Source: Bacillales bacterium UBA1361 (GTDB lineage Bacteria > Bacillota_I > Bacilli_A > RFN20 > CAG-826). From it: 49,146 nucleotides of DNA. The position numbers were made by a program, and so were the translations under genes. A model generated the notes under the pieces. That model was not told the origin of the DNA and did not search any database. It saw nothing but the letters and a program-made list of their open reading frames with translations. Shown here in pieces: positions 7,746-46,509 of the stretch. The stretch lies in assembly GCA_002306335.1 (NCBI GenBank), contig DBRT01000037.1, positions 329 to 49,474 of the forward strand, in the 5' to 3' direction. Positions within the stretch are counted from its first letter, which is position 1. Each line of letters begins with the position of its first letter.

Positions 7746-7896
7746 CAAAATGCTCGTAATTAAGAATTTGTTCCTAGTTATATCATTAATAGGACCTTTT
7801 CTATTATTTAGTGGCAAAATCAGCATTTATTACTGCAAAACATACTTATTTTATGTATAATTAAAATGTATTTATACAATGGAAAAGGATAATTTT

Positions 7897-8859
7897 ATGA
7901 AATTATATGTTTTAGAAAATGACTTGCTTAAAGTAACTTTTTTAGATGTCGGTGCTAGTATTTATTCCTTTAGTGTTAAGGCGCTAGATAACCGCAATAT
8001 TGTCTTAACAACAAAAGACAAAAACATTTATAAAGAACCACCGAAGAATGCTTATTTTGGCGCTACTGTTGGGCGGGTTGGTGGCAGGATTGCTAACGGT
8101 GAATTTATAATTGATGGCAAGAAGTATCAAGCCGTGCAAAATGAAAAAGTAACTAATTCACTACACGGCGGATTTGAAAGTTATGCCGCTAAACTTTTTG
8201 AAGTAGTGGAGGAAAAGGAAGATTATATTACTTTCCGTTATGTAAGTAGGGACGGTGAAGGGGGTTATCCTGGTGAACTTGAACTATATGTTAAATACAC
8301 ATTACTAGATAACTGTTTAGCGCTTGATTACGAAGCACGGACAACAAAGAAAACATTAGTGAACATTATTAATCATAGTTACTTTAATTTAAATGGTAAA
8401 GGTGACATTTTAAAACATAAGGTTAGCGCTGATGTTGAAGCAGTATTTGCGCTTGACGATAAACAAATTAACTTACTGCCTCTTAAAGTAAGAAAAGGCG
8501 ACACTTTTGACTTAAGCACTGGTAAAAAGTTAGAAAAAATGGTGTTTGCCAAAGAAGTAAATGTACCACCGATGGGCGGGGTTGACCATTTACTTGTTAC
8601 TCCAAAGCGGAAATTAACGCTTGAAGGTGAAGACTTACGCTTAATAGTTCTTAGTGATTATCCAGCAGTGCAAATTTATAGTACAAACTATCCGCCGGAA
8701 GTAACACTACTTGAAGGCACAAAAGTTATAAAATATGGCGGGTTAGCAATTGAACCAGCGGATATTGTCTGCGGGCAAAATGGTGAATTTAAAAACCTGG
8801 AACTATGTCCAGGTGAAGTTTATAAGCGCCGTATTAAATATATTGTTGAATTACTTTAA
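7897..8859 (+). CDS. galM: Aldose 1-epimerase (galactose mutarotase)
   Basis: ATG at 7897 follows AAAGGAT. Mutarotase-like sequence (GATVGRVGGRIANG, NSLHGG, NHSYFNL). Adjacent to galK. Confidence 0.8.
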   Translation: MKLYVLENDLLKVTFLDVGASIYSFSVKALDNRNIVLTTKDKNIYKEPPKNAYFGATVGRVGGRIANGEFIIDGKKYQAVQNEKVTNSLHGGFESYAAKLFEVVEEKEDYITFRYVSRDGEGGYPGELELYVKYTLLDNCLALDYEARTTKKTLVNIINHSYFNLNGKGDILKHKVSADVEAVFALDDKQINLLPLKVRKGDTFDLSTGKKLEKMVFAKEVNVPPMGGVDHLLVTPKRKLTLEGEDLRLIVLSDYPAVQIYSTNYPPEVTLLEGTKVIKYGGLAIEPADIVCGQNGEFKNLELCPGEVYKRRIKYIVELL

Positions 8860-20320: not shown

Positions 20321-20397
20321 GCGGTCATAGCTCAACTGGATAGAGTGCCAGACTACGAATCTGGAGGTTGGGAGTTCGATTCTTCCTGACCGCGCCA
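20321..20397 (+). tRNA. tRNA-Arg (anticodon ACG), CCA encoded
   Basis: Manual cloverleaf: acceptor GCGGTCA/TGACCGC, anticodon arm CCAGA-CTACGAA-TCTGG, T arm GGGAG-TTCGATT-CTTCC. Confidence 0.9.
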
Positions 20398-20587: not shown

Positions 20588-21523
20588 ATGAGTAAAATAA
20601 ATGAAATACAAGTATTATTATCAAAAAAAGCTGAACTAAACGCACGGCTATCGTTATTGCCGTATGATGGCACTCCTGAAATAAAAACAATCAGCGGCAA
20701 AGATTATCTCTATGTGCGAAAAAGAGTTCTAAATAAAGTGACTTCAACCTATGTTGATGTTTATAGTGACAAGCTTTATAACAATCTACTTCGTAATAAT
20801 GAAGAAGCAAAAAAACTTAGGCGTGAAATACGCAAAATCGATAAAGCTTTAGCGAGTTTTGGTTACAAAGAAGGAATACTATTACCTAATGTCATTTTAG
20901 CGCGGGACTTTGCGCGAAAAAATCGTAATGCGATTATTTATGATCAAGTTATATTAGAGGGAATTGGTACAACTTTTCCCGAGACAGAAGCAATTCTCGA
21001 ACAAGGTATTATCAAGAATGCTAGAGCGGAAGATGTGCAAAAAATTCTTAATTTGAAAAGAGCGTGGGAATTTATTTTAGATGACGATGTTTTATTAACG
21101 AAAACAGATTTTCATCTTATTAGTTATATCGCTAAAATTGTTAATGAAGGATTATTTATTTTTGGTGGCGAAGTTAGAGGGGTACCTGTTAAGATTGGTG
21201 GTTCAACTTATTATCCTCCTATCCCACTTGAATCTAAAGTAAAAGAAGATATCAACGCTTTATTGTCTTCATCGTTAAATGATGTCGATACCGCTATTGA
21301 ACTTTGTTTATACATTATGAAAACGCAAATCTTTAATGATGGCAATAAAAGAACTGCGGTTATTGCCACTAACCATTATTTAGTGAGTAAAGGCATTGGG
21401 TTTTTAGCAATAGCTTACGATAAAGTTCCCGCTTTTAGAGAAATGTTAGTAAATTATTATGAAAATAAAAATATTAATGAAATTAAAAACTTTCTTAAAA
21501 GTTGTATACATTTAGTTGACTAG
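20588..21523 (+). CDS. Fic/Doc-fold protein with non-canonical active-site motif (QIFNDGNKRTA)
   Basis: C-terminal motif IFNDGNKRTAV matches the Doc-type HxFxD(A/G)NKR motif, except that Gln (codon 21326-21328) replaces His. The ~120-aa N-terminal extension has no recognisable family. Confidence 0.7.
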   Translation: MSKINEIQVLLSKKAELNARLSLLPYDGTPEIKTISGKDYLYVRKRVLNKVTSTYVDVYSDKLYNNLLRNNEEAKKLRREIRKIDKALASFGYKEGILLPNVILARDFARKNRNAIIYDQVILEGIGTTFPETEAILEQGIIKNARAEDVQKILNLKRAWEFILDDDVLLTKTDFHLISYIAKIVNEGLFIFGGEVRGVPVKIGGSTYYPPIPLESKVKEDINALLSSSLNDVDTAIELCLYIMKTQIFNDGNKRTAVIATNHYLVSKGIGFLAIAYDKVPAFREMLVNYYENKNINEIKNFLKSCIHLVD

Positions 21524-21691
21524 TGCAAACTTAGCAATATAAAGGGTTTTTTAACAATATTTACTATTTTTTCACAAAACAGTGTTTTTAATCGTATTAT
21601 AAGTAGTAGGTATTAATAATAATGGAAACAAATAAAGTGTTGATGAATTCACAAAAGTGTCGCGTTAATCGTAATAATAGTGTAGGTGCTT

Positions 21692-22165
21692 ATGACTAAA
21701 GAGATGTTTAGTGAAAAGTATCTAACCTACAAAGTCATGGTGTTTCAAATAAGCTATGCATATTTACGGAATATTGAAGATGCTGAAGAGGCGACGCTTG
21801 ACTCATTTATGAAATTTTATAAAAGCACGAAGAAATTTCAGTCAGTTAACCATGAAAAGAATTATTTAATTAGAGTAACGATTAATACTGCAAAAGATTA
21901 CTTAAAGAAAATTAAAGCGTTACCCTTAAATGAAGAAGTTCATGGTGTGTATGACGATAATGGTGAACTTGATAAGCATTATGTATGGGCAGTAGTCGAC
22001 GAGTTAGAAGGTAAATATAAAGATGTTATTTATTTGCGTTATACTGCAGACTTACCGTATAAAGATATAGCAAGCATTCTTAAAATAAGTGAAGCACTAG
22101 CGAGGAAATATCATGAAATTGCCATTAAAACATTGCGTGAATTAATCGGAGGAAATTATGCCTGA
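21692..22165 (+). CDS. ECF-type sigma-70 family RNA polymerase sigma factor
   Basis: About 157 aa. Region 2-like ISYAYLRNIEDAEEATLDSF. Region 4 HTH DVIYLRYTADLPYKDIASILKISEALARKYHEIAIKTLRE. Start is uncertain (GTG 21686 or ATG 21692). Confidence 0.8.
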   Translation: MTKEMFSEKYLTYKVMVFQISYAYLRNIEDAEEATLDSFMKFYKSTKKFQSVNHEKNYLIRVTINTAKDYLKKIKALPLNEEVHGVYDDNGELDKHYVWAVVDELEGKYKDVIYLRYTADLPYKDIASILKISEALARKYHEIAIKTLRELIGGNYA

Positions 22166-23507
22166 ATTAGAAAAGAAATTACATGAAACAAAAACACTTA
22201 TTCCTGAAGTGCCACAAAGATTAGATATTAAAATGGAAGAAAGGATTGATGGTGCTACAAAAGTAAAGCGTCCGCTTAACTTGCGTTTTCGCTTTGTTTT
22301 GGCGACAGCCATTGTCGCGTGTGTGGCTTTAAGCGCGACGACAATTGCCTTATTTAGTCATACTCAAAAAGAACAACAACAATTATTTCACAAATTACCA
22401 CAGTCTAAAGTGCTGATGAATTTAGATGATGACTTAGTAAATAGAACAGCAATTAAGGCGGTTGAGAAATTATCCCCCTTTCTTACTGATGAAAAAGCAG
22501 AAGATACTGTGCTATCACCAGCAACTTACTCCTTAGCGATGGCTGGGCTTTCCGCTGTTAGTGATAACTTTAATAATGATGCTTTTGGTTTAATTAATGC
22601 CGAAGAAGATGTAAAAGCGCTCTTAGAAGCATGGAATTTTAAATTTAAAAATTACACAGGTGAAACTTTTTTCCGCTCGGCAGTCTTACATCAACAAGTT
22701 GGACCAACTTATGCTTTTGATAAGAGTAAACAAGAAGCAGTAAGTGATCATTACATTTCGACAATGGTCTCTTCGCACGAATCTTACCGGAAAGACGCTG
22801 ATAAATTTTTTGATAAGAAGATTGGTTTAAAGCTTAAAGTTCCTGATTTAAATCTTAAAAGTGATGGAGTAGTGACTTACGGTGTTTTAAAAATGAAAGA
22901 TTATGTCGCTAACGATGGGCTTTTTCATCGACATATGCCTTTTACATTTAAAAGCGGGCTAGGCACAGCGGATTCCTATGTCTTTGCTGTAAGAGAAGAT
23001 CCAAAGAAAGTTGCTTATTATCGCGGAGGTAATTATGAGGTATTTAAAGTAAATATTCGAAATACTGATTTAATGATAGTTTTACCAAACGAAGAGGTTA
23101 ATATTAATCATGTAAATATCACTGAAGCTTACACTAATTTTGTTAATGAGGCTGAACTTGTTCCCGCTTTTGGCTATGTACCCTTCTTCCATAACAAAGT
23201 TGAAGGTCTAAATTTAACAGACACATTAGAAAATGTTATTACGCATAACGAAATCTATATGAGTAAATTACTTAAAGATGATGTTTATAATGATTTAGTT
23301 ATTGACGCTGTTGTGCAATCAAATGACTTTGAATTTAATAAATATGGTGTGGCAGGAGAATCAATGACCGCAGTTTCCGGCTGTACATCAACTGGTCCAC
23401 TTTACGATGAACCAATTGATCTTTCTGTTAATCGTCCGTTTTATGCCTTCTCTTTAAAAGATAAATACCCAATCTTTATTAATAAAGTGTCAAAGCCTGG
23501 CGCATAA
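22158..23507 (+). CDS. Single-pass membrane protein with extracytoplasmic serpin-fold domain; candidate anti-sigma factor
   Basis: Start overlaps the sigma stop (ATGCCTGA). RBS GGAGGA. TM helix FRFVLATAIVACVALSATTIALF. Serpin landmarks TVLSPATYSLAMAGLSAVS and VNRPFYAFSLKDKYPIFINKVSKP. Confidence 0.7.
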   Translation: MPELEKKLHETKTLIPEVPQRLDIKMEERIDGATKVKRPLNLRFRFVLATAIVACVALSATTIALFSHTQKEQQQLFHKLPQSKVLMNLDDDLVNRTAIKAVEKLSPFLTDEKAEDTVLSPATYSLAMAGLSAVSDNFNNDAFGLINAEEDVKALLEAWNFKFKNYTGETFFRSAVLHQQVGPTYAFDKSKQEAVSDHYISTMVSSHESYRKDADKFFDKKIGLKLKVPDLNLKSDGVVTYGVLKMKDYVANDGLFHRHMPFTFKSGLGTADSYVFAVREDPKKVAYYRGGNYEVFKVNIRNTDLMIVLPNEEVNINHVNITEAYTNFVNEAELVPAFGYVPFFHNKVEGLNLTDTLENVITHNEIYMSKLLKDDVYNDLVIDAVVQSNDFEFNKYGVAGESMTAVSGCTSTGPLYDEPIDLSVNRPFYAFSLKDKYPIFINKVSKPGA

Positions 23508-23542
23508 TTATTGTTTGTCATAAAACTATTTACTAAAAATAA

Positions 23543-23569
23543 GGCTACATCAAAATGTAGTCTTTTTTT
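23543..23569 (+). terminator. Rho-independent terminator after the sigma/serpin pair
   Basis: GGCTACAT-caaa-ATGTAGTC followed by TTTTTTT. Confidence 0.8.
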
Positions 23570-23646
23570 AAAAATTGATTTTAATTTATTGGTCGCTGCA
23601 TATTCTATTTAAGTATTTAACATTTTTTTAAAAAGTTTTAAAAAGT

Positions 23647-23675
23647 TTGAAAATACTTGTTTTTCAAATTAAAAT
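23647..23675 (+). promoter_or_regulatory. Sigma-A type promoter of the AAA ATPase gene
   Basis: TTGAAA, 17-nt spacer, TAAAAT. Confidence 0.55.
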
Positions 23676-23730
23676 TTATTACAATAAAATTGTAAGTTCA
23701 AAAAACTTGAATATACAAGGAGCAAATAAT

Positions 23731-24870
23731 ATGATTGTCTTAAATTTGAAGTTAGATAATATTCTAGCCTTTAAGGATTTCGAAGTTAATTTTAGTTATC
23801 CGCGTAAACTTAAGAAAACGCTAATTGAAGGAGAACATCTTCGCACAATTCCAACTTTTAGATATAAGAAATTAGTAGTGTTAATTGGTTCAAACGCAAC
23901 AGGGAAAACTTCTCTCATTAAATTAATTTGGAGAATTTCTTTATTTCTGCATCGTAAAAATCCTAGTTTTTTAGATAGTCTTATAAGTGAAAACAATGAA
24001 CACGGCAACATTGAAATTGACTTTGTAAATGAATATGATGATGTTGCTATTTTATACCGCGCTAAAATTAGAATAATTAAAAATAATGTAAATAATCAAA
24101 ACGTTGTTGAAGTTGCAATGTATAGCAAGAAACTCACTGAAGGTGATTCATACGAAAATAGTATTAATGAGTTAGATAATCATGAATATGTCTTTGAAAG
24201 TTGGCAAGTAGCTTTACAAGAGTTTTATGATAATTTTGGTTGGCAAGTAGTCCTTCCATCAACTGAAGAATTATTTGATAAGTTTTATATACATGCTGAT
24301 ATCAATGAAAGTGAAAAAGATGATTATTTAGATATATTAAACAATGTAATGAAAACATTAGATCCAGCAATTAAGAATGTTTTTCATAGTAAAGATGCTG
24401 CTGATGCGATAGTTATTGAATATAGTGATGAGCGAAAAGTATTAATTCAAAACGGTAATGACATTTCAAGTATTCCGCTGCTTTCAAGCGGTACTAAATA
24501 TGGGGTGGCGATCAGTAATATTCTTTTTTCAATTAAAAATCACCGTAACGGACTCTATTTAGTGGATGAGCAATTTTCATATGTGACTGCTGACATTGAA
24601 ACAGCAATTTTAGCAAAAATGACTGCTTTACTTAATAGTGGTGAACAACTATTTTTTACTACACACAATTCAAATATTCTTGAATTAGGTTTTCCTTTTC
24701 ATTCGTTCTATTTTATGAAAAAGACAATCATAGATGGTGCACCAATAATCAATGTGTCTTGTGCATCAGAACTAGAAAATCGCAATAATGTATCACCAAA
24801 GAATATGTTCGATAATGATGCTTTTGGAACAGCGCCGAATGTTGACGGTATCTATTCTATTGGTAAATGA
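23731..24870 (+). CDS. AAA_15/AAA_21-type (ABC/SMC-like) ATPase, orphan
   Basis: ATG at 23731 follows AAGGAG. Walker A GSNATGKTS, Walker B LYLVDEQ, H-loop-like FFTTHNS. No TM region and no nuclease domain visible. Confidence 0.75.
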   Translation: MIVLNLKLDNILAFKDFEVNFSYPRKLKKTLIEGEHLRTIPTFRYKKLVVLIGSNATGKTSLIKLIWRISLFLHRKNPSFLDSLISENNEHGNIEIDFVNEYDDVAILYRAKIRIIKNNVNNQNVVEVAMYSKKLTEGDSYENSINELDNHEYVFESWQVALQEFYDNFGWQVVLPSTEELFDKFYIHADINESEKDDYLDILNNVMKTLDPAIKNVFHSKDAADAIVIEYSDERKVLIQNGNDISSIPLLSSGTKYGVAISNILFSIKNHRNGLYLVDEQFSYVTADIETAILAKMTALLNSGEQLFFTTHNSNILELGFPFHSFYFMKKTIIDGAPIINVSCASELENRNNVSPKNMFDNDAFGTAPNVDGIYSIGK

Positions 24871-25428: not shown

Positions 25429-26628
25429 ATGAAAATAACATTTATGCTTTTTTATTATGACCCCGAGAATCCGACGATTAATTACCTCTATCGTCCGCTT
25501 TGGGATAAGCTAATTAAAGCGGGGCATGAAATTAATATTATCACCCCTAATCCGACACGCGGGATTCCGTTAAGTGAACAAGAAAAATATAAGAAAACGA
25601 GTGTTGAGAAAAAAGGGGCGTTTACGATTCATCGTGTAAAGTGTTACACTTATCACCCGAGTCGCTTTAGTAAATTTAAATTACTTAGACGTTATATCAG
25701 TGTGTCGCGCCGTTTAGCGAAAAAATTGCGTAAAGTAGAAAGTGATGTTGTCTTTGTTTCTAGTAACCCGCCGCTGCTTTATAGTTATTTAGTAACAAGG
25801 TATTGTGCGAGAAAGAAAATACCAGTTATTTATAATGTTCAAGATATTTATCCTGATAATATCTTTAAAGAAAATAGTTTTGCGTATAAAGTTTTTAATC
25901 CTTTACAAGTTAAAAGTTTAGCGCGCGCTAGTGAAGTCGTCACTATTAGTGAAACAATGCGTAAAACACTTTTAAAGAAAGGCGACTTTAATAATAAAAT
26001 AAGTGTCATCTATAACTTTGATATTAGTGAAGTGCGGAAGACTCCGCTAGTGAAGAAGTATACATTTTTTGATCCATTGCAATTTAATGTCGTTTACGCT
26101 GGTAACATTGGCTATGTCCAAGATATTGATGTCATTTTAAGTGCGGCAAAACTTTTAGTGCATGAACCGCGCATTCATATTCATATCGTTGGTGAAGGTA
26201 GTCAAGCTGCAAGAATCGCTAAACGAATTCATGACGAAAATATTGTTAACGCTACTTATTACCCGCCACATAGTGTGGAAGATAGTGCCCAGCTTTATAA
26301 AAATGCGGATGTAAATGTAATATCAATATTGCCAGGGATAATTAAAACGGCATTACCACTTAAAACGGCAAGTTGTCTAGCGGCACAGAAACCGATTATT
26401 TTTATTGGACTTGAAACTTTTTATCATAATGAAGAATGGGTAAATGAGGTAAGTGAGCTCTATCCCATTAATTATCGTAATTATGAAAAGGTTGCGGAAA
26501 CAATTGAAAAACTCGCTAATGCTAAAACTAAGCCAAAATTAAAGTATGATCAAATTGAACTTTTTGATAAAGAAAAGAATGTTAATGAGTACTTTAACTT
26601 AATTACTAAGTACTTAAAAGAAGAATAG
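25429..26628 (+). CDS. Glycosyltransferase family 4 (WcaI-like)
   Basis: GT-B fold hallmarks, about 400 aa. No SD. An extended -10 (TGtTATACT, 25413-25421) ends 7 nt before the ATG. Confidence 0.7.
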   Translation: MKITFMLFYYDPENPTINYLYRPLWDKLIKAGHEINIITPNPTRGIPLSEQEKYKKTSVEKKGAFTIHRVKCYTYHPSRFSKFKLLRRYISVSRRLAKKLRKVESDVVFVSSNPPLLYSYLVTRYCARKKIPVIYNVQDIYPDNIFKENSFAYKVFNPLQVKSLARASEVVTISETMRKTLLKKGDFNNKISVIYNFDISEVRKTPLVKKYTFFDPLQFNVVYAGNIGYVQDIDVILSAAKLLVHEPRIHIHIVGEGSQAARIAKRIHDENIVNATYYPPHSVEDSAQLYKNADVNVISILPGIIKTALPLKTASCLAAQKPIIFIGLETFYHNEEWVNEVSELYPINYRNYEKVAETIEKLANAKTKPKLKYDQIELFDKEKNVNEYFNLITKYLKEE

Positions 26629-27514: not shown

Positions 27515-27591
27515 CGGGATGTAGCGTAGCTTGGTAGCGCGTCTGTTTTGGGAACAGAAGGTCGCAGGTTCAAATCCTGTCATCCCGACCA
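27515..27591 (+). tRNA. tRNA-Pro (UGG), CCA encoded
   Basis: Acceptor CGGGATG/CATCCCG. Anticodon arm TCTGT-TTTGGGA-ACAGA. Confidence 0.9.
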
Positions 27592-27599
27592 TTTATTAT

Positions 27600-27675
27600 G
27601 GGGCCGTAGCTCATCTGGGAGAGCGCTTGCCTTGCACGCATGAGGTAGCGAGTTCGATCCTCGTCGGCTCCACCA
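27600..27675 (+). tRNA. tRNA-Ala (UGC), CCA encoded
   Basis: Acceptor GGGGCCG/CGGCTCC with the G3:U70 pair. Anticodon loop CTTGCAC. Confidence 0.9.
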
Positions 27676-27684
27676 TTATATTGT

Positions 27685-27762
27685 GGCTGCGTAGCTCAGT
27701 TGGTTTAGAGCGGCTGACTCATACCCAGCAGGTCGGGGGTTCAAATCCCTCCGCAGCTACCA
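27685..27762 (+). tRNA. tRNA-Met (CAU), elongator type
   Basis: Acceptor GGCTGCG/CGCAGCT. Anticodon loop CTCATAC. Resembles Bacillus elongator tRNA-Met and lacks initiator features. Confidence 0.8.
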
Positions 27763-27778
27763 ATACTAAAATTAAGCT

Positions 27779-27854
27779 GGACCCTTAGCTCAATGGTTAG
27801 AGCTCCCGGCTCATAACTGGTTGGTTATAGGTTCGAGTCCTATAGGGTCCACCA
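27779..27854 (+). tRNA. tRNA with CAU anticodon, probably tRNA-Ile2 (lysidine-modified)
   Basis: GGACCCTTAGCTCA...GGCTCATAAC...TAGGTTCGAGTCCTATAGGGTCCACCA resembles remembered Bacillus/Mycoplasma tRNA-Ile(CAU). The isotype is an inference. Confidence 0.75.
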
Positions 27855-27857
27855 TAC

Positions 27858-27948
27858 GGAAGCATACCCAAGCGGTTGAAGGGGTCGGTCTTGAAAACCG
27901 ATAGGGGATGCAAGTCCCGCCTGAGTTCGAATCTCAGTGCTTCCGCCA
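27858..27948 (+). tRNA. tRNA-Ser (UGA), long variable arm, CCA encoded
   Basis: Acceptor GGAAGCA/TGCTTCC. Anticodon arm TCGGT-CTTGAAA-ACCGA. Extended variable arm. Confidence 0.9.
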
Positions 27949-39111: not shown

Positions 39112-40842
39112 ATGAAAAAAGGATTATTCAAATATTTTAAAGTAGTATGGAAAGAAGGGATTCTTGCCATCTTTTTTATTTTATTTGAAACTGTTTTAGA
39201 AACACTAGTGCCATTTATGGCAAGTCGCGTTGTTGATGTTGGTATCGCTAATAATGATTTACCTTATATCTATAAATGGGGTGCCCTTATGGTATGTTCG
39301 GCTTTTCTTGCTTTCTTTATTGGCATCATTGGTGTCCGTTATGTCGCTCGTACTGGTCAAGGATTTGGGGCGGAATTACGTCGTGCTCAATTTGCGAAAC
39401 TACAAAGTTTAGACCAAGAAGCGCGTGATAAATTCGCTGTATCTTCTTTGATTACACGGCTTACAAATGATACTTACACTATTCAAAATGCCATCATTAT
39501 TGGGATGCGCGGGATATTCCGTGCTCCATTTATGATTACGATGGTATTAATGCTTAGTTTCAATATGAATTCTAAAGTAGCAATTGTATTTGCACTTACG
39601 CTTCCTGTTATTGCGTTTGCGATGCTAGTCATTGTTTTTCGAGTTAGACCACTTTATGAACGGATGCAACGTAATTTTGATGAATTAAACCGTACTTTAC
39701 AAGAAAACTTTCAAGCGATCCGTGTTGTTAAAGCTTATGTTACGGAAGAGCAAGAAGAAGCAAAGTTTAAGGCGATTAATAAGATGTATCGTAAAGTCGC
39801 TAGTAATGCGTTTATGACAGTATCACTCAATAGTCCGATTATGCAACTTGGACTTTATTCAACGATTATTGGTCTTCTGCTTGTCGGTGGTAATTTAATT
39901 AATACTGGCGAAGCTAAAATTGGTGAAATTCAAGGGTTACTAACCTTTGTTTTACAACTCTTAAATGCGATGCTGATGCTTGCGCAAATATTAATTATGT
40001 TTGGTCGCACTAGCGCTTCAAAAAGTAGAATTAGTGAAGTACTTAACACTGACACTAGTCTTGAATACTTGATTAATGATTTAAGTGTTAAAGCAAAACC
40101 GAGTTTAATTGTGAAAGATGTAAGTTTTAAGTATCCGGGCACAAGTGATGATAATTATGCTTTAAAAAACATTAATTTCACGCTTAAGGCTGGTGAAACA
40201 CTTGGGATTATTGGTCAAACTGGAAGCGGTAAATCAACACTCGTCCATCTTTTAGCACGGCTTTATGATGTAACTGATGGTGAGATTATTTTAGACGACC
40301 ATAATGTTAAAGATTATAGTGCGGATAATCTTCTAGATGCTATTAACATTGTCTTTCAAAATAATATGCTCTTTAGCGGAACAATTCGTGATAACTTGCT
40401 ATGGGGTAATAAAGATGCAAGTGACGAAGAAATTAATCGGGCATTAGAAGCAAGTCTAAGTGACGAAATTGTGAATAAATTAGCAAATGGTTTAAATAGT
40501 GAAGTCGGGCAAGCAGGCTCTTTGCTTTCAGGTGGTCAAAAACAACGAATAGCATTAGCAAGAGCATTACTAAAAAGACCAAAAATATTAGTGCTTGATG
40601 ATTCTTTATCAGCGATTGATACGATTAATGAAGGGAAAATTCGCACTAAATTACGGAAACTTTATCCGCAACTTACTTTAATTATTGTTGCGCAACGTGT
40701 GAGTGCTATTAAAGACGCTGATCATATTTTAGTGTTGCATGAAGGGGAAATTCACGGGGCAGGTACGCATAACTCACTTGTGGAAAATGATGAGATTTAT
40801 CACGATATTTACACGACCCAACTAAAAGGAGCAAAAGCATGA
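39112..40842 (+). CDS. ABC exporter half-transporter (TMD-NBD), degenerate-site subunit of heterodimer 1
   Basis: Walker A GQTGSGKST, signature LSGGQKQR. Walker B is followed by Asp instead of the catalytic Glu (ILVLDDSLS). The H-loop His is replaced (VAQRVS). Confidence 0.9.
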   Translation: MKKGLFKYFKVVWKEGILAIFFILFETVLETLVPFMASRVVDVGIANNDLPYIYKWGALMVCSAFLAFFIGIIGVRYVARTGQGFGAELRRAQFAKLQSLDQEARDKFAVSSLITRLTNDTYTIQNAIIIGMRGIFRAPFMITMVLMLSFNMNSKVAIVFALTLPVIAFAMLVIVFRVRPLYERMQRNFDELNRTLQENFQAIRVVKAYVTEEQEEAKFKAINKMYRKVASNAFMTVSLNSPIMQLGLYSTIIGLLLVGGNLINTGEAKIGEIQGLLTFVLQLLNAMLMLAQILIMFGRTSASKSRISEVLNTDTSLEYLINDLSVKAKPSLIVKDVSFKYPGTSDDNYALKNINFTLKAGETLGIIGQTGSGKSTLVHLLARLYDVTDGEIILDDHNVKDYSADNLLDAINIVFQNNMLFSGTIRDNLLWGNKDASDEEINRALEASLSDEIVNKLANGLNSEVGQAGSLLSGGQKQRIALARALLKRPKILVLDDSLSAIDTINEGKIRTKLRKLYPQLTLIIVAQRVSAIKDADHILVLHEGEIHGAGTHNSLVENDEIYHDIYTTQLKGAKA

Positions 40843-42686
40843 AAAAGCAAAGTAAGCCTAAACATATGAAGCAAACAATGCGCCGGCTCTTTAGTTATTT
40901 ATTAAAACGACCTGTGCCGCTAGTTTTTATTGTACTCCTTGTTGTGTGGAGCGGGTTTACTAATGGTTACGGTATTTATGTAATGCGTGAAATCATCGAT
41001 AAAAGCATATTAGACTTTGATATAAATGGTTTAAATAAGTCACTTATTAAATTAGCGATCCTTTTCGGTTCAGGTGCTTTAAGTGCACTTATTTATAACC
41101 CGATGATGGTTAAATATTCACAAACTGTTATCGCCGACATTCGCAATGAACTTTTCGCTCATAGTCAAAAATTACCGCTATCTTATTTTGACAGGACACC
41201 GCGCGGTGAAATTATGAACTATTTCACTAATGATGTTGACACACTTAATCAAGCACTTAATACTGGGTTTACAACGATGATTTATTCAGTAGTAACAGGC
41301 ATTGGCACAATTGTATTTCTTTTCCTTATTAATTTTTATTTGTCACTGATTGTTGTCTTTTTCATCGTTGTAATGTTTTTTATGGTACTGCGTAATAGTC
41401 AAAAAATGCGGGTTGGTTTTGCTAGTGTTCAAAAAGATACTGCGCATTTAAATAGTTATATTGAAGAAATGATGTTAGGGCTTAAAGTATCAGCAATGTT
41501 TTCACACCAAAAAGAAGACATGAAAGAATTTAAGCGGCGCAATGATGCATTAACGAAAAGCGGAATATACGCGAATACTTTAGTGTTACGAAAGACACCA
41601 ATGATTGTTAGTTTGTCGTATTTTAATTATGCGATTAGTGCGATTGCTGGTGCGCTTTTTGTATTAAATGGCTGGCTAAGTTTAGGAGCACTAGGATCAT
41701 ACTTAATTTATGTCCGCCAAAGTTCAAATCCGTTTAATAACTTTATGACTGAATTAAATGCTCTCTATAACGGGCTTTCAGGGGCAGAACGGATTTTTGC
41801 TTTTCTTGACTTAGAACAAGAAATAGATGAAGGTAAAGTCCGGCTTGTCAGCGCTGTTGAAATTGATGGTAATATCGTTGAAACTGAACACCCGACTAAT
41901 AGTTTAGCGTGGAAGATTCCGACGGCTAACGGGGAATTCACCTATGAAATATTTAAAGGGCGAGTCGATTTTACTAATGTTGTTTTTGGTTATAAGCAAG
42001 ATGAACGCGTCTTAAATAATATTAGTTTACATGCCGAAAAAGGTGAAAAAGTTGCGCTTGTTGGTTCAACTGGTGCCGGTAAAACAACAATTATCAATCT
42101 TATTACTCGCTTTTATGAAATTGATAGCGGCACGATTAATTATGATGGGATTGATATTCGCGATATTAAAAAAAGTGATTTACGCCAATCAGTAAGTGTC
42201 GTTATTCAAGATACACATTTATTTACTGGTACTATTTTTGAAAATATTGCTTATCCTAGTCCTGGCGCAACAATTGCCGAAGTAGAACGCGCCGCTAAAA
42301 TTGCGCACGCTCATGATTTTATTGTTAAATTACCACAAGGTTATGAAACGATGCTTTACGATAACGGGGCAAATCTTTCAAGTGGACAGCGGCAACTTAT
42401 TGCTATTGCGCGCGCTGCTATTTTACAACCACCAGTCTTAATCCTTGATGAAGCTACTAGCTCAATTGATACCCGTAGTGAAAGACTCATTGAAAAAGCG
42501 ATGGATGAGTTAATGGAAGATAAAACGGTATTTGTTATTGCTCACCGTTTGAGCACTATTCGAAACGCTAAAGCAATATTAGTAATGGAAAAAGGCTCAA
42601 TTATTGAACGCGGAAGTCATGAGGATTTAATTTTAGAAGGTAAAGTTTACTATCAGTTATACACTGGTCAATTTGAATGGACATAG
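40839..42686 (+). CDS. ABC exporter half-transporter, consensus-site subunit of heterodimer 1
   Basis: Overlaps the previous gene by 4 nt (ATGA). GSTGAGKTT, LSSGQRQ, LILDEATS, IAHRLST. Confidence 0.9.
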   Translation: MKKQSKPKHMKQTMRRLFSYLLKRPVPLVFIVLLVVWSGFTNGYGIYVMREIIDKSILDFDINGLNKSLIKLAILFGSGALSALIYNPMMVKYSQTVIADIRNELFAHSQKLPLSYFDRTPRGEIMNYFTNDVDTLNQALNTGFTTMIYSVVTGIGTIVFLFLINFYLSLIVVFFIVVMFFMVLRNSQKMRVGFASVQKDTAHLNSYIEEMMLGLKVSAMFSHQKEDMKEFKRRNDALTKSGIYANTLVLRKTPMIVSLSYFNYAISAIAGALFVLNGWLSLGALGSYLIYVRQSSNPFNNFMTELNALYNGLSGAERIFAFLDLEQEIDEGKVRLVSAVEIDGNIVETEHPTNSLAWKIPTANGEFTYEIFKGRVDFTNVVFGYKQDERVLNNISLHAEKGEKVALVGSTGAGKTTIINLITRFYEIDSGTINYDGIDIRDIKKSDLRQSVSVVIQDTHLFTGTIFENIAYPSPGATIAEVERAAKIAHAHDFIVKLPQGYETMLYDNGANLSSGQRQLIAIARAAILQPPVLILDEATSSIDTRSERLIEKAMDELMEDKTVFVIAHRLSTIRNAKAILVMEKGSIIERGSHEDLILEGKVYYQLYTGQFEWT

Positions 42687-42789
42687 AATAAACTTCCTTA
42701 TGAAAGCACTTTACTAGCTACAATTTGTGTAAAGTATGTAAATATGTACCTATTTTAATTTTATCGTTGTTATAAATTATTCCATTTAA

Positions 42790-42797
42790 TGTATAAT
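42790..42797 (+). promoter_or_regulatory. Extended -10 element upstream of the second ABC exporter pair
   Basis: TGTATAAT (TGn + TATAAT), 43 nt before the ATG at 42841. Confidence 0.5.
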
Positions 42798-42840
42798 AGT
42801 AGAGATTGTTTTAATAGGATCTATTAAAAGAAGGATAGAT

Positions 42841-44667
42841 ATGAAGAGAAAAAAAGCAAAGAAACATTCAATCTTACACTTACTAAAAGGCCACTTTTGG
42901 GGGATGTTTTTTGTTACGCTTTTAGTTATCTTCCATCGTGTATCGTATTCCTTTGTACCACTATTTACACAGTACATTTTAAAATACTTACAAAATAATG
43001 GAGTAGTGACCGGTGTTAATTTACCGTTATTTGTTATTGAAATATTTGAAAAGGGTCAAAATGTTTTTGAGGTTTCACTTTATGTTGCCCTTACGCTCCT
43101 TTTATATCAATTGTTTCGTTTTAGTTTAATGGTTGTTGAGCAACGACTTAAAGGCCAAGTGCAAGAGAGCATTGCTTTAAAATTACGCGTTAAACTTTTT
43201 GATCATATTCAGTCACTTAGCTATCATTATCATAATAATAGTGACACTGGTGACCTCATTCAAAGAGTAACGACTGATGTGGAAGTGACAACAAACTTTG
43301 TCGTAATGCGCGTAATGGATGCGGTCGGTTTAATATTCATGGTCTTAAGCGGGGCGTATCAAATGTATTTTTTAAGTCCGCTTTTAATGTATATTTCGCT
43401 AGCGGTCATTCCGCTTTATGGTATTTCTTCTTATTTCTATTTTAAAAATATTTGGAAGCGTTATAACGATATTGAAGAAAAAGAAGCGGAAATTTTAACC
43501 GTTATTCAAGAAAATGTCCATAACGCTAAAGTTGTGAAGGCTTTTGCTAATGAAAAGTTTGAAACAGAAAAGTTAGAAGTTAAAAATAAAGCACATAAAA
43601 ATGCAGTGATTAAAACTAATAAAATTGTTGGTATGTATTGGGCAGCAATGGATTTCTTTGCTCTTAGTCAATATTTTGTAATTACCCTCATTAGTGTGTT
43701 TCTTGCTAGAAACGGACAAATGGATGCTGGTAACGCTGCCGCAGCGTTAATGCTTGTTGGCCTTTTAATCTGGCCAATTCGTGGTTTAGGCCGATTAATT
43801 AATGATGTCTCGCACGCTAATGTAGCATATAACCGTATTACGACAGTACTCGATGAAAAGAGTGAATTTGAAATTAATGGTGATTTATTACCGGAGATTG
43901 CGGGAAAAATTGAATTTAAAAATGTGTCCTTTAAGTTTCCTGGTGATAGTAGTTATACCTTAGAAAACTTGAACTTTACAATTGAGAAGGGCCAAACTGT
44001 AGCGATCGTTGGGCGCACTGGTAGCGGGAAAACAACGATTATTAATTTATTAATGCGGATGTATGAATATGAAGGGTCAATTTTAATTGATGATATTGAA
44101 CTTCGCGACATTGAAAAACATCACTTACGGAAAAATATGGGTACGGTTTTACAAAATCCGTTTCTTTACTCCCGCACTATTCGTGACAATATTAATATTA
44201 CTGCGCGTAAGGCCCCGATGGAAAAGATTATTAATGCCAGTGAAATTGCCACAATTGCCCATGATATTCGTGATTTTGAAAAAGGTTATGATACGATGGT
44301 TGGCGAAAGAGGAACAACGCTTTCTGGCGGGCAAAAACAGCGGGTAGCGATTGCGCGCGTGCTTATTAGTGAAAAACCAATTTTAATATTTGATGATGCT
44401 TTAAGCGCGGTTGATAGTCGCACCGATACCCTTATTCGTCAAGCATTAAAACAAAAAGAACAAACATCGACAACGCTTATTATTACTCACCGGATAACTA
44501 CCGCTAAAGAGGCTGATCAAATTATTGTAATTAATAACAAGACTGTTGAAGATATTGGAACCCATGACACCCTAGCGAAAGCGGGCGGGTTATATCAAGT
44601 CTTATGGGATATTCAAGGAGATTTAGAAACAGAGTTCTTAGAACTTGTTGCTAAGGAGTGTGTTTAG
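42841..44667 (+). CDS. ABC exporter half-transporter, degenerate-site subunit of heterodimer 2
   Basis: GRTGSGKTT, LSGGQKQR. Walker B is followed by Asp (ILIFDDALS). Confidence 0.9.
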   Translation: MKRKKAKKHSILHLLKGHFWGMFFVTLLVIFHRVSYSFVPLFTQYILKYLQNNGVVTGVNLPLFVIEIFEKGQNVFEVSLYVALTLLLYQLFRFSLMVVEQRLKGQVQESIALKLRVKLFDHIQSLSYHYHNNSDTGDLIQRVTTDVEVTTNFVVMRVMDAVGLIFMVLSGAYQMYFLSPLLMYISLAVIPLYGISSYFYFKNIWKRYNDIEEKEAEILTVIQENVHNAKVVKAFANEKFETEKLEVKNKAHKNAVIKTNKIVGMYWAAMDFFALSQYFVITLISVFLARNGQMDAGNAAAALMLVGLLIWPIRGLGRLINDVSHANVAYNRITTVLDEKSEFEINGDLLPEIAGKIEFKNVSFKFPGDSSYTLENLNFTIEKGQTVAIVGRTGSGKTTIINLLMRMYEYEGSILIDDIELRDIEKHHLRKNMGTVLQNPFLYSRTIRDNINITARKAPMEKIINASEIATIAHDIRDFEKGYDTMVGERGTTLSGGQKQRVAIARVLISEKPILIFDDALSAVDSRTDTLIRQALKQKEQTSTTLIITHRITTAKEADQIIVINNKTVEDIGTHDTLAKAGGLYQVLWDIQGDLETEFLELVAKECV

Positions 44668-44670
44668 AGT

Positions 44671-46509
44671 ATGAGTGCAGATGTTTTTCGCGAAGAAGAA
44701 GCAGTTAAAAAAGTAACTTTCGGAGTTTGGAAACAAATCTTAAAGATTATTTTAAGAAGTAAAAAAGAACTATCGTTACTCTTAATTTTTGCGGTGTTTA
44801 TGTCACTCGCGGAAGCTTCAACAATTCCGCTTAATGCTTATGCAATTAGTAATCTTATTGAAACATATAATGAAAGTGCCTTACTCCCCTTTATTGTATT
44901 AAGTGTTACCCAAATTGTTGTCTTTGCCTTTGGTGTCTTTGGCTTTATTTACTTTGGTTCAAAACTTGAAACACAAGTACGATATACATTACGCAAAGAG
45001 TCATTTAAAAATTTACAAAAATTACCATTTAGCTATTATGACTCGACAAAACAGGGCTGGATTATGGCCAGGATGACAAGTGATACAAACCGTTTAGCGC
45101 GCATTGTCTCATGGGGAATCTTAGATTTAACTTGGTCAGGTTTCTTTATGTTTTTCACGATTGTTGTCTTATTTATTAGTGAATGGCGGCTAGCTTTAGT
45201 GTTTGTTTCATTTTTACCAATCTTACTTTTTATTGCGATTATTTTCCGTAAGAAAGTTTTAATCTTAAATCGTAAATCACGTTTCCATAATAGTCAGTTA
45301 ACTGGCCTTTTTAATGAATCATTTTTAGGCGCTAAAACAACTAAGAGCTTAGCAATTGAAAGTGAATTAAGTGACGAATTTACGAAAGAAGCGCGCGTAA
45401 TGAAAAAAGTGACGTTAAAGGCGATTCTTTATGGCGCTATTTTCTCGAGTTTCCTTTTAGCGGGCAGTTACACAATTGTTGCCTTTGTCATGGCGCTTGG
45501 TGGGTACTTTGCCCTCCAAGGCTTAGTGACGATGCCGATTCTCTTTATGTTTATTCGTGCGGCAATGAATACTTTTGAACCTATCTTAAACTTAACGAAC
45601 TTTATTAATGAACTACAAGTCGCGCAAGCTAGTGCTGAACGTGTTTTACAATTAGTCAACGAAAAGCCGTCGATTGATGATACGCAAGAAGTTAAAGATG
45701 TGTATGGTGATTTATTTGATAAGAAAAAAGAAAATTGGGAAGAAATTAAAGGTGATGTTGAATTTAAAGATGTGACATTCTATTACAATCCAAAAGAAAT
45801 TATTCTCGATAAATTTAATTTAAAAGTTAAAGCTGGGCAAACAGTAGCACTTGTTGGTCATACCGGCAGCGGGAAAACAACGATTGTTAATCTTTTCGCA
45901 AGATTCTACGAGCCGCGCGCTGGTGAAATATTAATTGATGGTAAAGATTATCGAAAGCGTAGTCTATCATGGCTCCATAGCCGCTTAGGATATGTTTTAC
46001 AAATGCCCGAGCTTTTCTCCACATCGATTAAAGAAAACATTCGCTATGGTAATTTAGAGGCAAGTGATGAAGAAGTCATTGCTGCGAGTAAAGCAGTCGG
46101 CCTTGATGAATTTGTGAATACCTTAGAAAAGGGATACGACACGCATGTTGGTGAAGCTGGTAACCTTTTATCAGTGGGCCAAAAGCAACTCATCTCTTTT
46201 GCGCGAGCAATTATTGCTGATCCACGAATTTTAATTCTTGACGAAGCGACTAGTTCGATTGATAGCGAAGCTGAAGCAAAAATCCAAAAAGCCACTGATG
46301 AACTCTTAAAAGGCCGAACAAGTTTTGTTGTTGCGCACCGCTTAAGCACGATTGTTAATAGTGATTTAATCGTTGTTTTAGAAAACGGTAAGATTATTGA
46401 GCAAGGTACTCACGCTGAATTACTAGGTAATCGCGGGCATTACTTTGAATTATATCGAAATCAATTTATCGCGGAACGCCGTGAAGAAAAATATCTGGAG
46501 ATTGATTAA
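44671..46509 (+). CDS. ABC exporter half-transporter, consensus-site subunit of heterodimer 2
   Basis: GHTGSGKTT, LSVGQKQ, LILDEATS, VAHRLST. Confidence 0.9.
   Translation: MSADVFREEEAVKKVTFGVWKQILKIILRSKKELSLLLIFAVFMSLAEASTIPLNAYAISNLIETYNESALLPFIVLSVTQIVVFAFGVFGFIYFGSKLETQVRYTLRKESFKNLQKLPFSYYDSTKQGWIMARMTSDTNRLARIVSWGILDLTWSGFFMFFTIVVLFISEWRLALVFVSFLPILLFIAIIFRKKVLILNRKSRFHNSQLTGLFNESFLGAKTTKSLAIESELSDEFTKEARVMKKVTLKAILYGAIFSSFLLAGSYTIVAFVMALGGYFALQGLVTMPILFMFIRAAMNTFEPILNLTNFINELQVAQASAERVLQLVNEKPSIDDTQEVKDVYGDLFDKKKENWEEIKGDVEFKDVTFYYNPKEIILDKFNLKVKAGQTVALVGHTGSGKTTIVNLFARFYEPRAGEILIDGKDYRKRSLSWLHSRLGYVLQMPELFSTSIKENIRYGNLEASDEEVIAASKAVGLDEFVNTLEKGYDTHVGEAGNLLSVGQKQLISFARAIIADPRILILDEATSSIDSEAEAKIQKATDELLKGRTSFVVAHRLSTIVNSDLIVVLENGKIIEQGTHAELLGNRGHYFELYRNQFIAERREEKYLEID

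Follow-up and report, generated by a model that had tools for sequence, protein, structure and literature searches.

A serpin-fold membrane protein coupled to an ECF sigma factor gene in uncultured gut and rumen bacteria: a candidate protease-sensing anti-sigma protein

What might a serpin-fold domain be doing outside a bacterial cell when it is tethered by a single membrane helix and encoded across the end of a sigma factor gene? This question is raised by a two-gene unit at positions 21,692 to 23,507 of a 49,146-nucleotide (nt) stretch of DNA from Bacillales bacterium UBA1361 (assembly GCA_002306335.1, contig DBRT01000037.1), the whole of which is referred to here as the window. The unit consists of an extracytoplasmic function (ECF)-type sigma factor gene of 157 amino acids (aa) at 21692..22165 (+) and a partner gene of 449 aa at 22158..23507 (+), the latter a candidate anti-sigma factor with a serpin ectodomain. 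We regard it as highly probable that the two form an ECF sigma/anti-sigma pair in which the serpin fold is the sensor domain; how such a sensor would work is a more tentative matter, which is taken up below once the sigma factor, the fold, the pairing, and the cytoplasmic tail have been considered.

The sigma gene starts at an ATG (an alternative GTG lies at 21686), and its product matches Pfam Sigma70_r2 over residues 11-73 (3.9e-9) and Sigma70_r4_2 over residues 98-140 (6.2e-8), with no other region detected, and scores 55.5 bits with NCBIfam TIGR02937 (sigma70-ECF), for which the cut-off is 42.9. The 157-aa protein therefore has regions sigma-2 and sigma-4 alone within the ~150-200 aa that define the ECF (group 4) class. 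Among the named-group NCBIfam models, the best (TIGR02954, PRK11924, sigma_PG0214, and SigV) all remained far under their cut-offs. At the junction, the partner open reading frame (ORF) begins at 22158 with its ATG; the sigma gene ends with a TGA at 22163-22165, 3 nt past that ATG, such that the 8-nt overlap reads ATGCCTGA; a GGAGGA ribosome-binding site for the partner sits inside the end of the sigma gene at 22148-22153 (+), 4 nt before the partner ATG. The preliminary description of this locus, made from the letters alone, had reported an ECF-like gene of ~157 aa overlapping the start of its partner behind a GGAGGA site, all of which is read in the sequence; every sequence string that it quoted is likewise present where it was placed.

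The predicted fold of the partner's ectodomain is unambiguously that of a serpin. An AlphaFold2 model of the window protein has a mean predicted local distance difference test score (pLDDT) of 81.9, with residues 80-449 confident apart from 408-418, and a second model, of the relative P0028 with a 67-sequence alignment, reaches 85.0 and is equally serpin-like. Foldseek comparison of the two models with the PDB returned 341 and 374 matches, respectively, at E<=1e-3, the best 50 of each being serpins without exception, at target-normalised TM-scores of 0.55-0.71 and E-values of ~1e-17 to 1e-19 across both models; for the window model, the top matches have target-normalised TM-scores of 0.68-0.71, with a best E of 4.7e-19. 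Whether the ectodomain models as a serpin was a check proposed in the preliminary description, and these results answer it in the affirmative.

At the level of sequence the relationship is more distant. Pfam Serpin (PF00079) matches the window protein under its gathering score (20.3 versus 27 bits, residues 302-447 alone), and the Pfam scan of the ectodomain gave no family besides this weak match. Many of the 74 homologues found carry a precomputed PF00079 match, and a family profile built from 30 sequences finds three serpins of the PDB sequence set, namely alpha-2-antiplasmin (8.5e-7), alaserpin, and conserpin, with their LSPxS region and their C-terminal RPF...PLF.G.V.NP region both included in the alignments. 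In the window protein, VLSPATYSLAMAGLSAVS (residues 118-135) is aligned to the former and VNRPFYAF...FINKVSKP (residues 424-447) to the C-terminal signature, so that the serpin landmarks first proposed for the two ends of the domain do occupy the expected places. Residues S120, P121, R426, F428, and P438 are invariant family-wide, and LSVNRPFYAFS differs from the PROSITE serpin pattern at two positions.

In order along the partner, the layout comprises a charged cytoplasmic N-terminal tail, a putative sigma-binding module (residues 1-45; 22158..22292, +), a single transmembrane helix (residues 46-66; 22293..22355, +; AlphaFold2 places a helix at 48-75), a juxtamembrane linker with an extension before helix A (residues 67-90; 22356..22427, +), and the serpin-fold domain identified by Foldseek and the family profile (residues 91-449; 22428..23504, +). 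Of the linker, residues ~76-90 are modelled at pLDDT 71-89; the extension packs against the serpin body in the AlphaFold2 models while being tethered to the transmembrane helix. Within the domain lie the s6B/helix-B (shutter) motif VLSPATYSLAMAGLSAVS (22509..22562, +), the hinge GVAGESMT (residues 397-404, P15-P8; 23346..23369, +), a variable low-confidence loop equivalent to the distal reactive-centre loop (residues 405-421; 23370..23420, +), and the s1C/s4B/s5B region with the signature-like LSVNRPFYAFS...FINKVSKP (23421..23498, +). Minor adjustments to the preliminary description follow from this layout: the quoted membrane segment, F44-F66, is present, with its hydrophobic core now placed at 46-66, and the tail and the outside part measure ~45 and 383 residues rather than the ~50 and ~370 first estimated.

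The hinge merits particular attention, as it is on this element that any serpin-like conformational switch would turn. With Gly397 taken as P15 by the alpha-1-antitrypsin numbering, P14 to P8 read Val, Ala, Gly, Glu, Ser, Met, and Thr. Across 67 sequences, the column entropies of residues 397-404 are 0, 0.85, 1.97, 0.19, 0.94, 0.27, 0.72, and 0.22 bits, compared to an ectodomain mean of 1.8; the P15 Gly is invariant and the Gly/Ser/Thr residues at P12, P10, and P8 are nearly so, while the pattern G-x-x-[GSA]-x-[ST]-x-T is retained in divergent subfamilies of <20% identity. As P12, P10, and P8 are buried only upon insertion, such conservation is what would be expected if insertion were functional; we read it as indicating that the loop-inserted state is under selection, whichever state the uncleaved protein adopts. 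In agreement with the preliminary description, the hinge lacks an Ala run. Its inward-facing residues (P14 Val, P12, P10, and P8) are nonetheless small and strongly conserved, making the hinge more insertion-competent than was then implied; the inhibitory-serpin pattern is followed at P15, P14, P12, P10, and P8 (Gly, Val, Gly, Ser, and Thr, respectively), with P11 Glu and P9 Met/Ile atypical.

Distal to the hinge, residues 408-418 fall below pLDDT 50 in the window model, and loop 405-421 has entropies of 2-3.4 bits except for a semi-conserved Gly-Ser at 410-411 and Pro414; the canonical P1 position would be Ser411. From Gly397 to Pro427 there are 30 residues, compared to 25 in the corresponding stretch of alpha-1-antitrypsin, making the window loop ~5 residues longer. 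Residues 397-422 sit at the place of the reactive-centre loop, and an excess of a few residues, as previously suggested, holds up.

Is the neighbouring sigma gene a constant companion? The family has two architectures: a lipoprotein form of ~400 aa, whose signal peptide ends in Cys, and a transmembrane form of 440-510 aa; the juxtamembrane/pre-helix-A segment (residues 67-90) is found in both. In a survey of one genome per GTDB species, complemented by context look-ups and metagenome contigs, every transmembrane-form gene with readable upstream DNA overlaps an ECF sigma gene (16 GTDB species loci plus several metagenome contigs), by 4 nt in the main clade and by 8 nt in the clade of the window. 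The adjacency and co-transcription layout typical of an anti-sigma gene are hence present at all readable transmembrane-form loci. Conversely, at the nine lipoprotein-form loci the serpin is in no case preceded by a sigma gene. The genes flanking the sigma/transmembrane-serpin pair are unrelated from locus to locus, and pairing in dozens of independent loci means that the arrangement is not due to chance; with constant neighbours and differing flanks, the recurrence that was to be sought in other genomes has been found.

The family itself is small and narrowly distributed, for when 1.84 billion cluster representatives were searched exhaustively with a profile, just 52 of them matched at E<=1e-30 and no more than 129 at E<=1e-10. 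Its hosts are uncultured metagenome-assembled genomes (MAGs) from rumen and gut, labelled as Bacilli, Candidatus Enteromonas, Erysipelotrichaceae, or Mollicutes, and the sizes of the two largest host contigs (0.93 and 1.33 Mb) suggest small genomes. When the sigma alignment was used to scan metagenomes, with confirmation against the window's own divergent sigma, mostly generic ECF sigmas were returned, together with loci L048/L049, L097, and L117 and the divergent partners L064, L078, L103, and L111. L048 (Ga0209718_1000863, 38 kb) and L049 (JGI24708J26588_10003841, 10.6 kb) are contigs from Joint Genome Institute metagenomes with a sigma 100% identical to that of the window, each encoding a 449-aa partner with a family-profile score equal to that of the window protein; they probably derive from the same organism.

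The cytoplasmic tail offers further links between partner and sigma. The window tail is homologous to MxFEKxMKK..VPNPY..FPxWAKI, the conserved tail of the sigma-linked transmembrane forms, and such tails are found in sigma-linked proteins only. They are also joined to more than one kind of ectodomain. The sigma P0177, of the same family, is followed with a 4-nt overlap by a 562-aa partner sharing the tail and transmembrane helix alone; the possibility that this partner is a hidden serpin was rejected, since its similarity to the family profile is confined to the first 55 residues and there is no Pfam match. Sigma-linked partners of 562-586 aa at L046 (3995-5683) and L047 bear the same tail ahead of an ectodomain with neither a Pfam match nor similarity to the serpin family, and P0313 combines the tail with similar non-serpin sequence; judging by these sequences, the non-serpin ectodomain of L046, L047, and P0313 is a putative second sensor type for this sigma family. 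The tail is borne as well by the very divergent serpins L103 and L064 (hhalign probabilities of 99% and 98%, respectively) and by P0261, P0282, and P0292, whose Pfam Serpin matches exceed threshold. One tail with serpin or non-serpin ectodomains implies a module that accepts differing sensors. A profile search with a 59-column tail alignment yielded seven short fragments only, and so provides no census of ectodomain types.

Co-divergence points in the same direction. Over 12 sigma/partner pairs, sigmas that are more alike also have tails that are more alike (Spearman 0.90 for pairwise identities), a relationship not seen for the ectodomain (-0.01); as the 66 pairwise comparisons are non-independent, weight is placed on this contrast and none on a p-value. 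Compared to the main clade, the window pair is 21-28% identical in the sigma, 19-32% in the tail, and 33-47% in the ectodomain. Such co-divergence favours an interaction between sigma and tail, and we infer that the tail behaves as a sigma-binding module. The preliminary reading of a sigma/anti-sigma arrangement is thus borne out by a constant 4- or 8-nt overlap and by a tail confined to sigma-linked proteins. A further variant, in a Clostridia MAG (L041:2896-4892), has a lipoprotein-form serpin followed after 21 nt by an ECF sigma of the same family and, via an ATGA overlap, by a protein with a charged tail and a transmembrane helix, at which the contig ends. From its gene order, this appears to be an unfused version of the association, and it would tie serpin and sigma functionally even where they are not fused.

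Upstream of the sigma gene, the motif TCAC-N17-CGTA occurs as two tandem promoter-like copies, one at 21572..21596 (+) and a proximal one (TCACAAAAGTGTCGCGTTAATCGTA) at 21649..21673 (+), 19 nt before the sigma start codon. These are the sole matches in the entire 49 kb, where 0 would be expected by chance; the search for more copies in the window as regulon members yielded none. The motif is conserved in the window, L013, and L017, with L013 also having it in duplicate, and the main clade displays a counterpart at the same position, i.e., TTGA(A/G)CA with (C/T)GTC 18 nt on from its C and a GAGAGG ribosome-binding site beyond. An AC-N17/18-CGT layout thus stands directly before sigma in all clades, and this is the layout of ECF promoters (SigW, SigX, SigM, SigV), suggesting positive autoregulation of the operon. 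Since a weak sigma-70 pattern can be read in the window copies as well (in the upstream copy as TTCACA-18-TATTAT), they are best described as putative ECF promoters of the autoregulatory AAC-N16/17-CGT type. Before the L041 lipoprotein serpin, inspection by eye gave no convincing match to the main-clade motif. Downstream, an intrinsic terminator (23541..23575, +) comprises a 10-bp stem (23541-23564) and a T-run, in keeping with the one earlier given as 23543-23569. A 25-codon ORF (METNKVLMNSQKCRVNRNNSVGAYD) also lies between the motif copies, at 21622-21699 (+), ending in ATGACTAA and overlapping the sigma start; its counterpart in L013 has 26 codons and the same ending (..NSVGSYD). The conservation of this small ORF may reflect only the promoter DNA within it.

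The two-gene unit, which has its own promoter-like motifs and terminator, is probably self-contained and autoregulated, and a mechanism may be proposed for it. The tail (residues 1-45) would hold sigma. Exposed loop 405-421 would act as bait for an extracellular protease, whether this is produced by the host or by competing microbes or arrives with food. Upon loop cleavage, or covalent capture of the protease, hinge 397-404 would insert into sheet A, and this irreversible change of the ectodomain would be relayed via the packed N-terminal extension (residues 67-90) to the membrane-proximal segment. The juxtamembrane segment would in turn become accessible to site-1 and then site-2 proteolysis, and the freed sigma would transcribe its own operon, replenishing the consumed surface serpin, as well as the genes of its regulon. 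Sigma binding by the tail, the protease signal, serpin metastability, and regulated intramembrane proteolysis are all steps that we infer from the arrangement described above. Cleavage of the loop by a protease is a plausible signal. That the stressed-to-relaxed transition of a serpin would serve as a one-shot transmembrane switch, making the protein a suicide-substrate receptor through which proteases release sigma, is put forward more tentatively, as a possibility against which the odds still lean. For the chain taken as a whole (an autoregulated unit, a tail-held sigma, a protease-triggered serpin sensor, and sigma release), our estimate falls slightly short of even, at roughly 0.45.

Several observations count against this chain. 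The link to site-1 proteolysis is speculative, since loop cleavage leaves the length of the ectodomain unchanged and the relaxed form of a serpin resists proteases. Among the window ORFs scanned (a set that does not include four large ORFs at 40839-46509), neither a site-2 protease nor a candidate target or secreted protease was found. The most variable stretch of the ectodomain is not the loop but residues 327-336. The state of the hinge is also at issue: in both AlphaFold2 models it forms the strand directly after s5A (residues 397-406 and 397-404), and the structures matched best are those of serpin 42Da and CBG in the cleaved state and of tengpin and antithrombin in the latent state, with native forms ranking lower. 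With the hinge already inserted in both models, the ectodomain may be constitutively relaxed, and no spring-loaded trap. Inhibitory serpins follow a small-residue rule in the hinge, from which P11 Glu and P9 Ile/Met depart, and they typically have a breach Trp, none being evident in the family alignment. These features would suit an anti-sigma factor built on a non-inhibitory serpin scaffold, i.e., one that is stable, relaxed, or otherwise non-metastable, either sensing a non-protease ligand (bound as by hormone-carrier or chaperone serpins) or serving only as a bulky plug, routine breakdown of which would set off regulated proteolysis; the exchange of the serpin for a non-serpin ectodomain behind the same tail fits this alternative too, as it implies that sensors are exchangeable. 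Set against it are the positions P12, P10, and P8, which are buried after insertion only and are among the most conserved of the protein even at <20% identity, as well as a distal loop that is variable, disordered, and bait-like, and lipoprotein paralogues that resemble surface inhibitor serpins such as miropin. Moreover, loop-inserted AlphaFold2 models cannot separate a spring-loaded from a relaxed serpin, the method being blind to which state is populated. On balance, we consider a non-inhibitory scaffold rather unlikely, though it is the most serious of the alternatives.

Other observations bear on the anti-sigma role itself. A Pfam/NCBIfam scan of residues 1-90 at E up to 1 detected no anti-sigma domain (class I anti-sigma domain, zf-HC2, or RskA), the tail is very short at 35-45 residues, and lipoprotein serpins do without any sigma; from these, the partner might be no more than a membrane-anchored, protective protease inhibitor that is co-transcribed with, and driven by, a sigma under control from elsewhere. 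Such a bystander would not be expected to have a tail that is conserved, restricted to sigma-linked proteins, common to proteins with an unrelated ectodomain, and co-divergent with sigma as opposed to the ectodomain; the 4- or 8-nt overlap coupling is universal, and there is no other conserved neighbour able to serve as anti-sigma. This explanation is accordingly judged improbable. There are, lastly, signs of erosion within the sub-clade of the window. In its closest relative (L013:695-1165, also L014 and L015), with an intact partner of 69% identity, the sigma reading frame is interrupted by a TAG at the position of a TGG (Trp) codon in the window, as seen on three contigs that come from a single study; use of genetic code 4 was rejected as the explanation, as the codon is TAG, opposite the window TGG, and not TGA. 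At L017:2989-3904, on a 934-kb MAG contig of the same sub-clade, sigma is intact and the partner is split into a 44-aa tail remnant and a separate 246-aa C-terminal serpin ORF, without the transmembrane helix and the N-terminal serpin half, through either pseudogenization or assembly error; P0200, in addition, resembles a frameshifted window protein. A nonsense codon in one sigma and a broken partner beside another indicate a dispensable system, which weighs on the proposed mechanism, and one could go further and see the window copy as inactive, or as becoming a pseudogene, in a sub-clade that is losing the function. Both window genes are intact, though, and are equipped with ribosome-binding site, promoter motif, and terminator; the identical sigma recurs on two further metagenome contigs with equally scoring 449-aa partners; and the family-invariant residues are all read from, or aligned with, the window protein. 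A decaying remnant is consequently the least probable of these explanations, with very little chance of being right.

The protease-triggered sensor that we prefer has partial counterparts among known systems. In Bifidobacterium, proteases induce serpin expression via a two-component system; there, too, a gut bacterium links an outside protease to a serpin, but sensor and serpin are separate (a histidine kinase with its response regulator on the one side), whereas the serpin fold is itself the proposed sensor here and the output is a sigma factor. Closer in layout is SigV/RsiV of Bacillus subtilis and Clostridioides difficile, likewise an ECF sigma with a co-transcribed, single-pass anti-sigma; its operon is autoregulated, as that of the window pair probably is. 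The RsiV ectodomain directly binds a host hydrolase, which triggers cleavage at site 1 followed by intramembrane proteolysis (PMC4183432, PMC5014341, PMC6066255), and the activation proposed here follows that scheme in making the ectodomain the receptor for a hydrolytic enzyme. The two differ in that RsiV has a non-serpin ectodomain, to which its ligand, lysozyme, is bound non-covalently; the tail of the window protein is also shorter and unrelated, and no RsiV-type ectodomain was detected in it, with Pfam showing the weak Serpin match alone. The division into a sigma-binding cytoplasmic part, one transmembrane helix, and a variable outside sensor is shared with ECF anti-sigmas that have exchangeable sensors (PMC7826278); unlike in these, the window tail has no detectable class I domain (zf-HC2, RskA, and similar).

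Among serpins, tengpin (PDB 2pee, 2pef) is one of the best structural matches, and both it and the window protein have an extension before helix A, which in tengpin controls the conformational state of the serpin (PMC1905895). The lipoprotein forms of the family are surface-anchored in the manner of miropin, a lipoprotein serpin at the surface of Tannerella forsythia (bioRxiv 10.1101/2025.09.05.674453). Neither miropin nor tengpin has a fused cytoplasmic tail and transmembrane helix or any coupling to a sigma factor, and compared to serpins of their type the window protein is only 12-19% identical, with a Gly/Ser/Thr rather than an Ala-rich hinge and the longer loop noted above. The preliminary description knew of no ECF group with a serpin sensor, and its impression of novelty persists: among 8.3 million full texts, a text search, which is no guide to the content of databases such as InterPro or ECF Hub, found only coincidental co-mentions of serpins with ECF sigma or anti-sigma factors, the ECF re-classification (PMC7826278) never uses the word "serpin" in its main text, and neither "sigma" nor "membrane-anchored" occurs in the serpin superfamily phylogeny paper.

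The pair lies between a tRNA-Arg gene upstream (20321-20397) and a cluster of five tRNA genes (Pro, Ala, Met, Met, Ser; 27515-27948) downstream. GC content is 31-33% in the 21-27 kb interval, as against 36-41% at 15-21 kb and 37.5% at 27-28.5 kb, and the low-GC stretch bracketed by tRNAs holds a Doc/Fic-like gene, the sigma/serpin pair, an AbiLi-like ATPase, and a glycosyltransferase. The flanking tRNAs, lower GC, and Doc/Fic- and AbiLi-like neighbours conform to the tRNA-flanked accessory stretch first described, with its accessory nature being just plausible. The upstream neighbour (20588-21523, +) encodes a Fic/Doc-family protein (Pfam Fic, 1.2e-6) with the motif QIFNDGNKR, in which Gln takes the place of the catalytic His of Doc proteins. 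A Fic-family gene with the motif HPFLEGNGRATR stands directly before sigma in L017 as well (L017:1576-2430), so that the Fic-sigma-serpin order is common to the window sub-clade. The next gene downstream (23647-24870, +) encodes an AAA ATPase with a PADLOC match to AbiLi (1.6e-23) and weaker matches to AriA, PtuA, and mad3; with just short ORFs between it and the glycosyltransferase at 25429, and no obvious partner gene, it could represent an abortive-infection module that is solitary or has degraded. Farther out, the scanned flanks of the window contain genes for sugar, nucleoside, and ABC transport functions and glycosyltransferases; an aldose 1-epimerase gene lies at 7879-8859, ~13 kb upstream of the sigma gene. 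Some database entries (P0009, P0016, and P0211, of 741-750 aa) have a family serpin fused to a longer protein, with P0009 and P0016 carrying a precomputed Pfam aldose 1-epimerase match; these fusions are probably merged gene calls.

Ultimately, the architecture described here suggests a bacterial way of sensing outside proteases that has so far gone undescribed. ECF pairs are a major signalling route for which most ectodomain signals are unidentified, and a serpin ectodomain brings to it a well-understood and testable mechanism; bait-loop cleavage, insertion, and a large gain in stability would offer a handle on how an outside event is relayed across the membrane. A compact and modular protease-responsive unit with a reprogrammable loop would also be an attractive biosensor for synthetic biology. 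Should the proposal prove true, a suicide-substrate receptor for proteases would represent a sensing principle new to bacterial signalling and a new role for the serpin mechanism, adding to serpin biology both a signalling function and a new prokaryotic domain architecture. For the bacteria themselves, which face host and microbial proteases in the gut and rumen, the capacity to sense such enzymes would aid survival.

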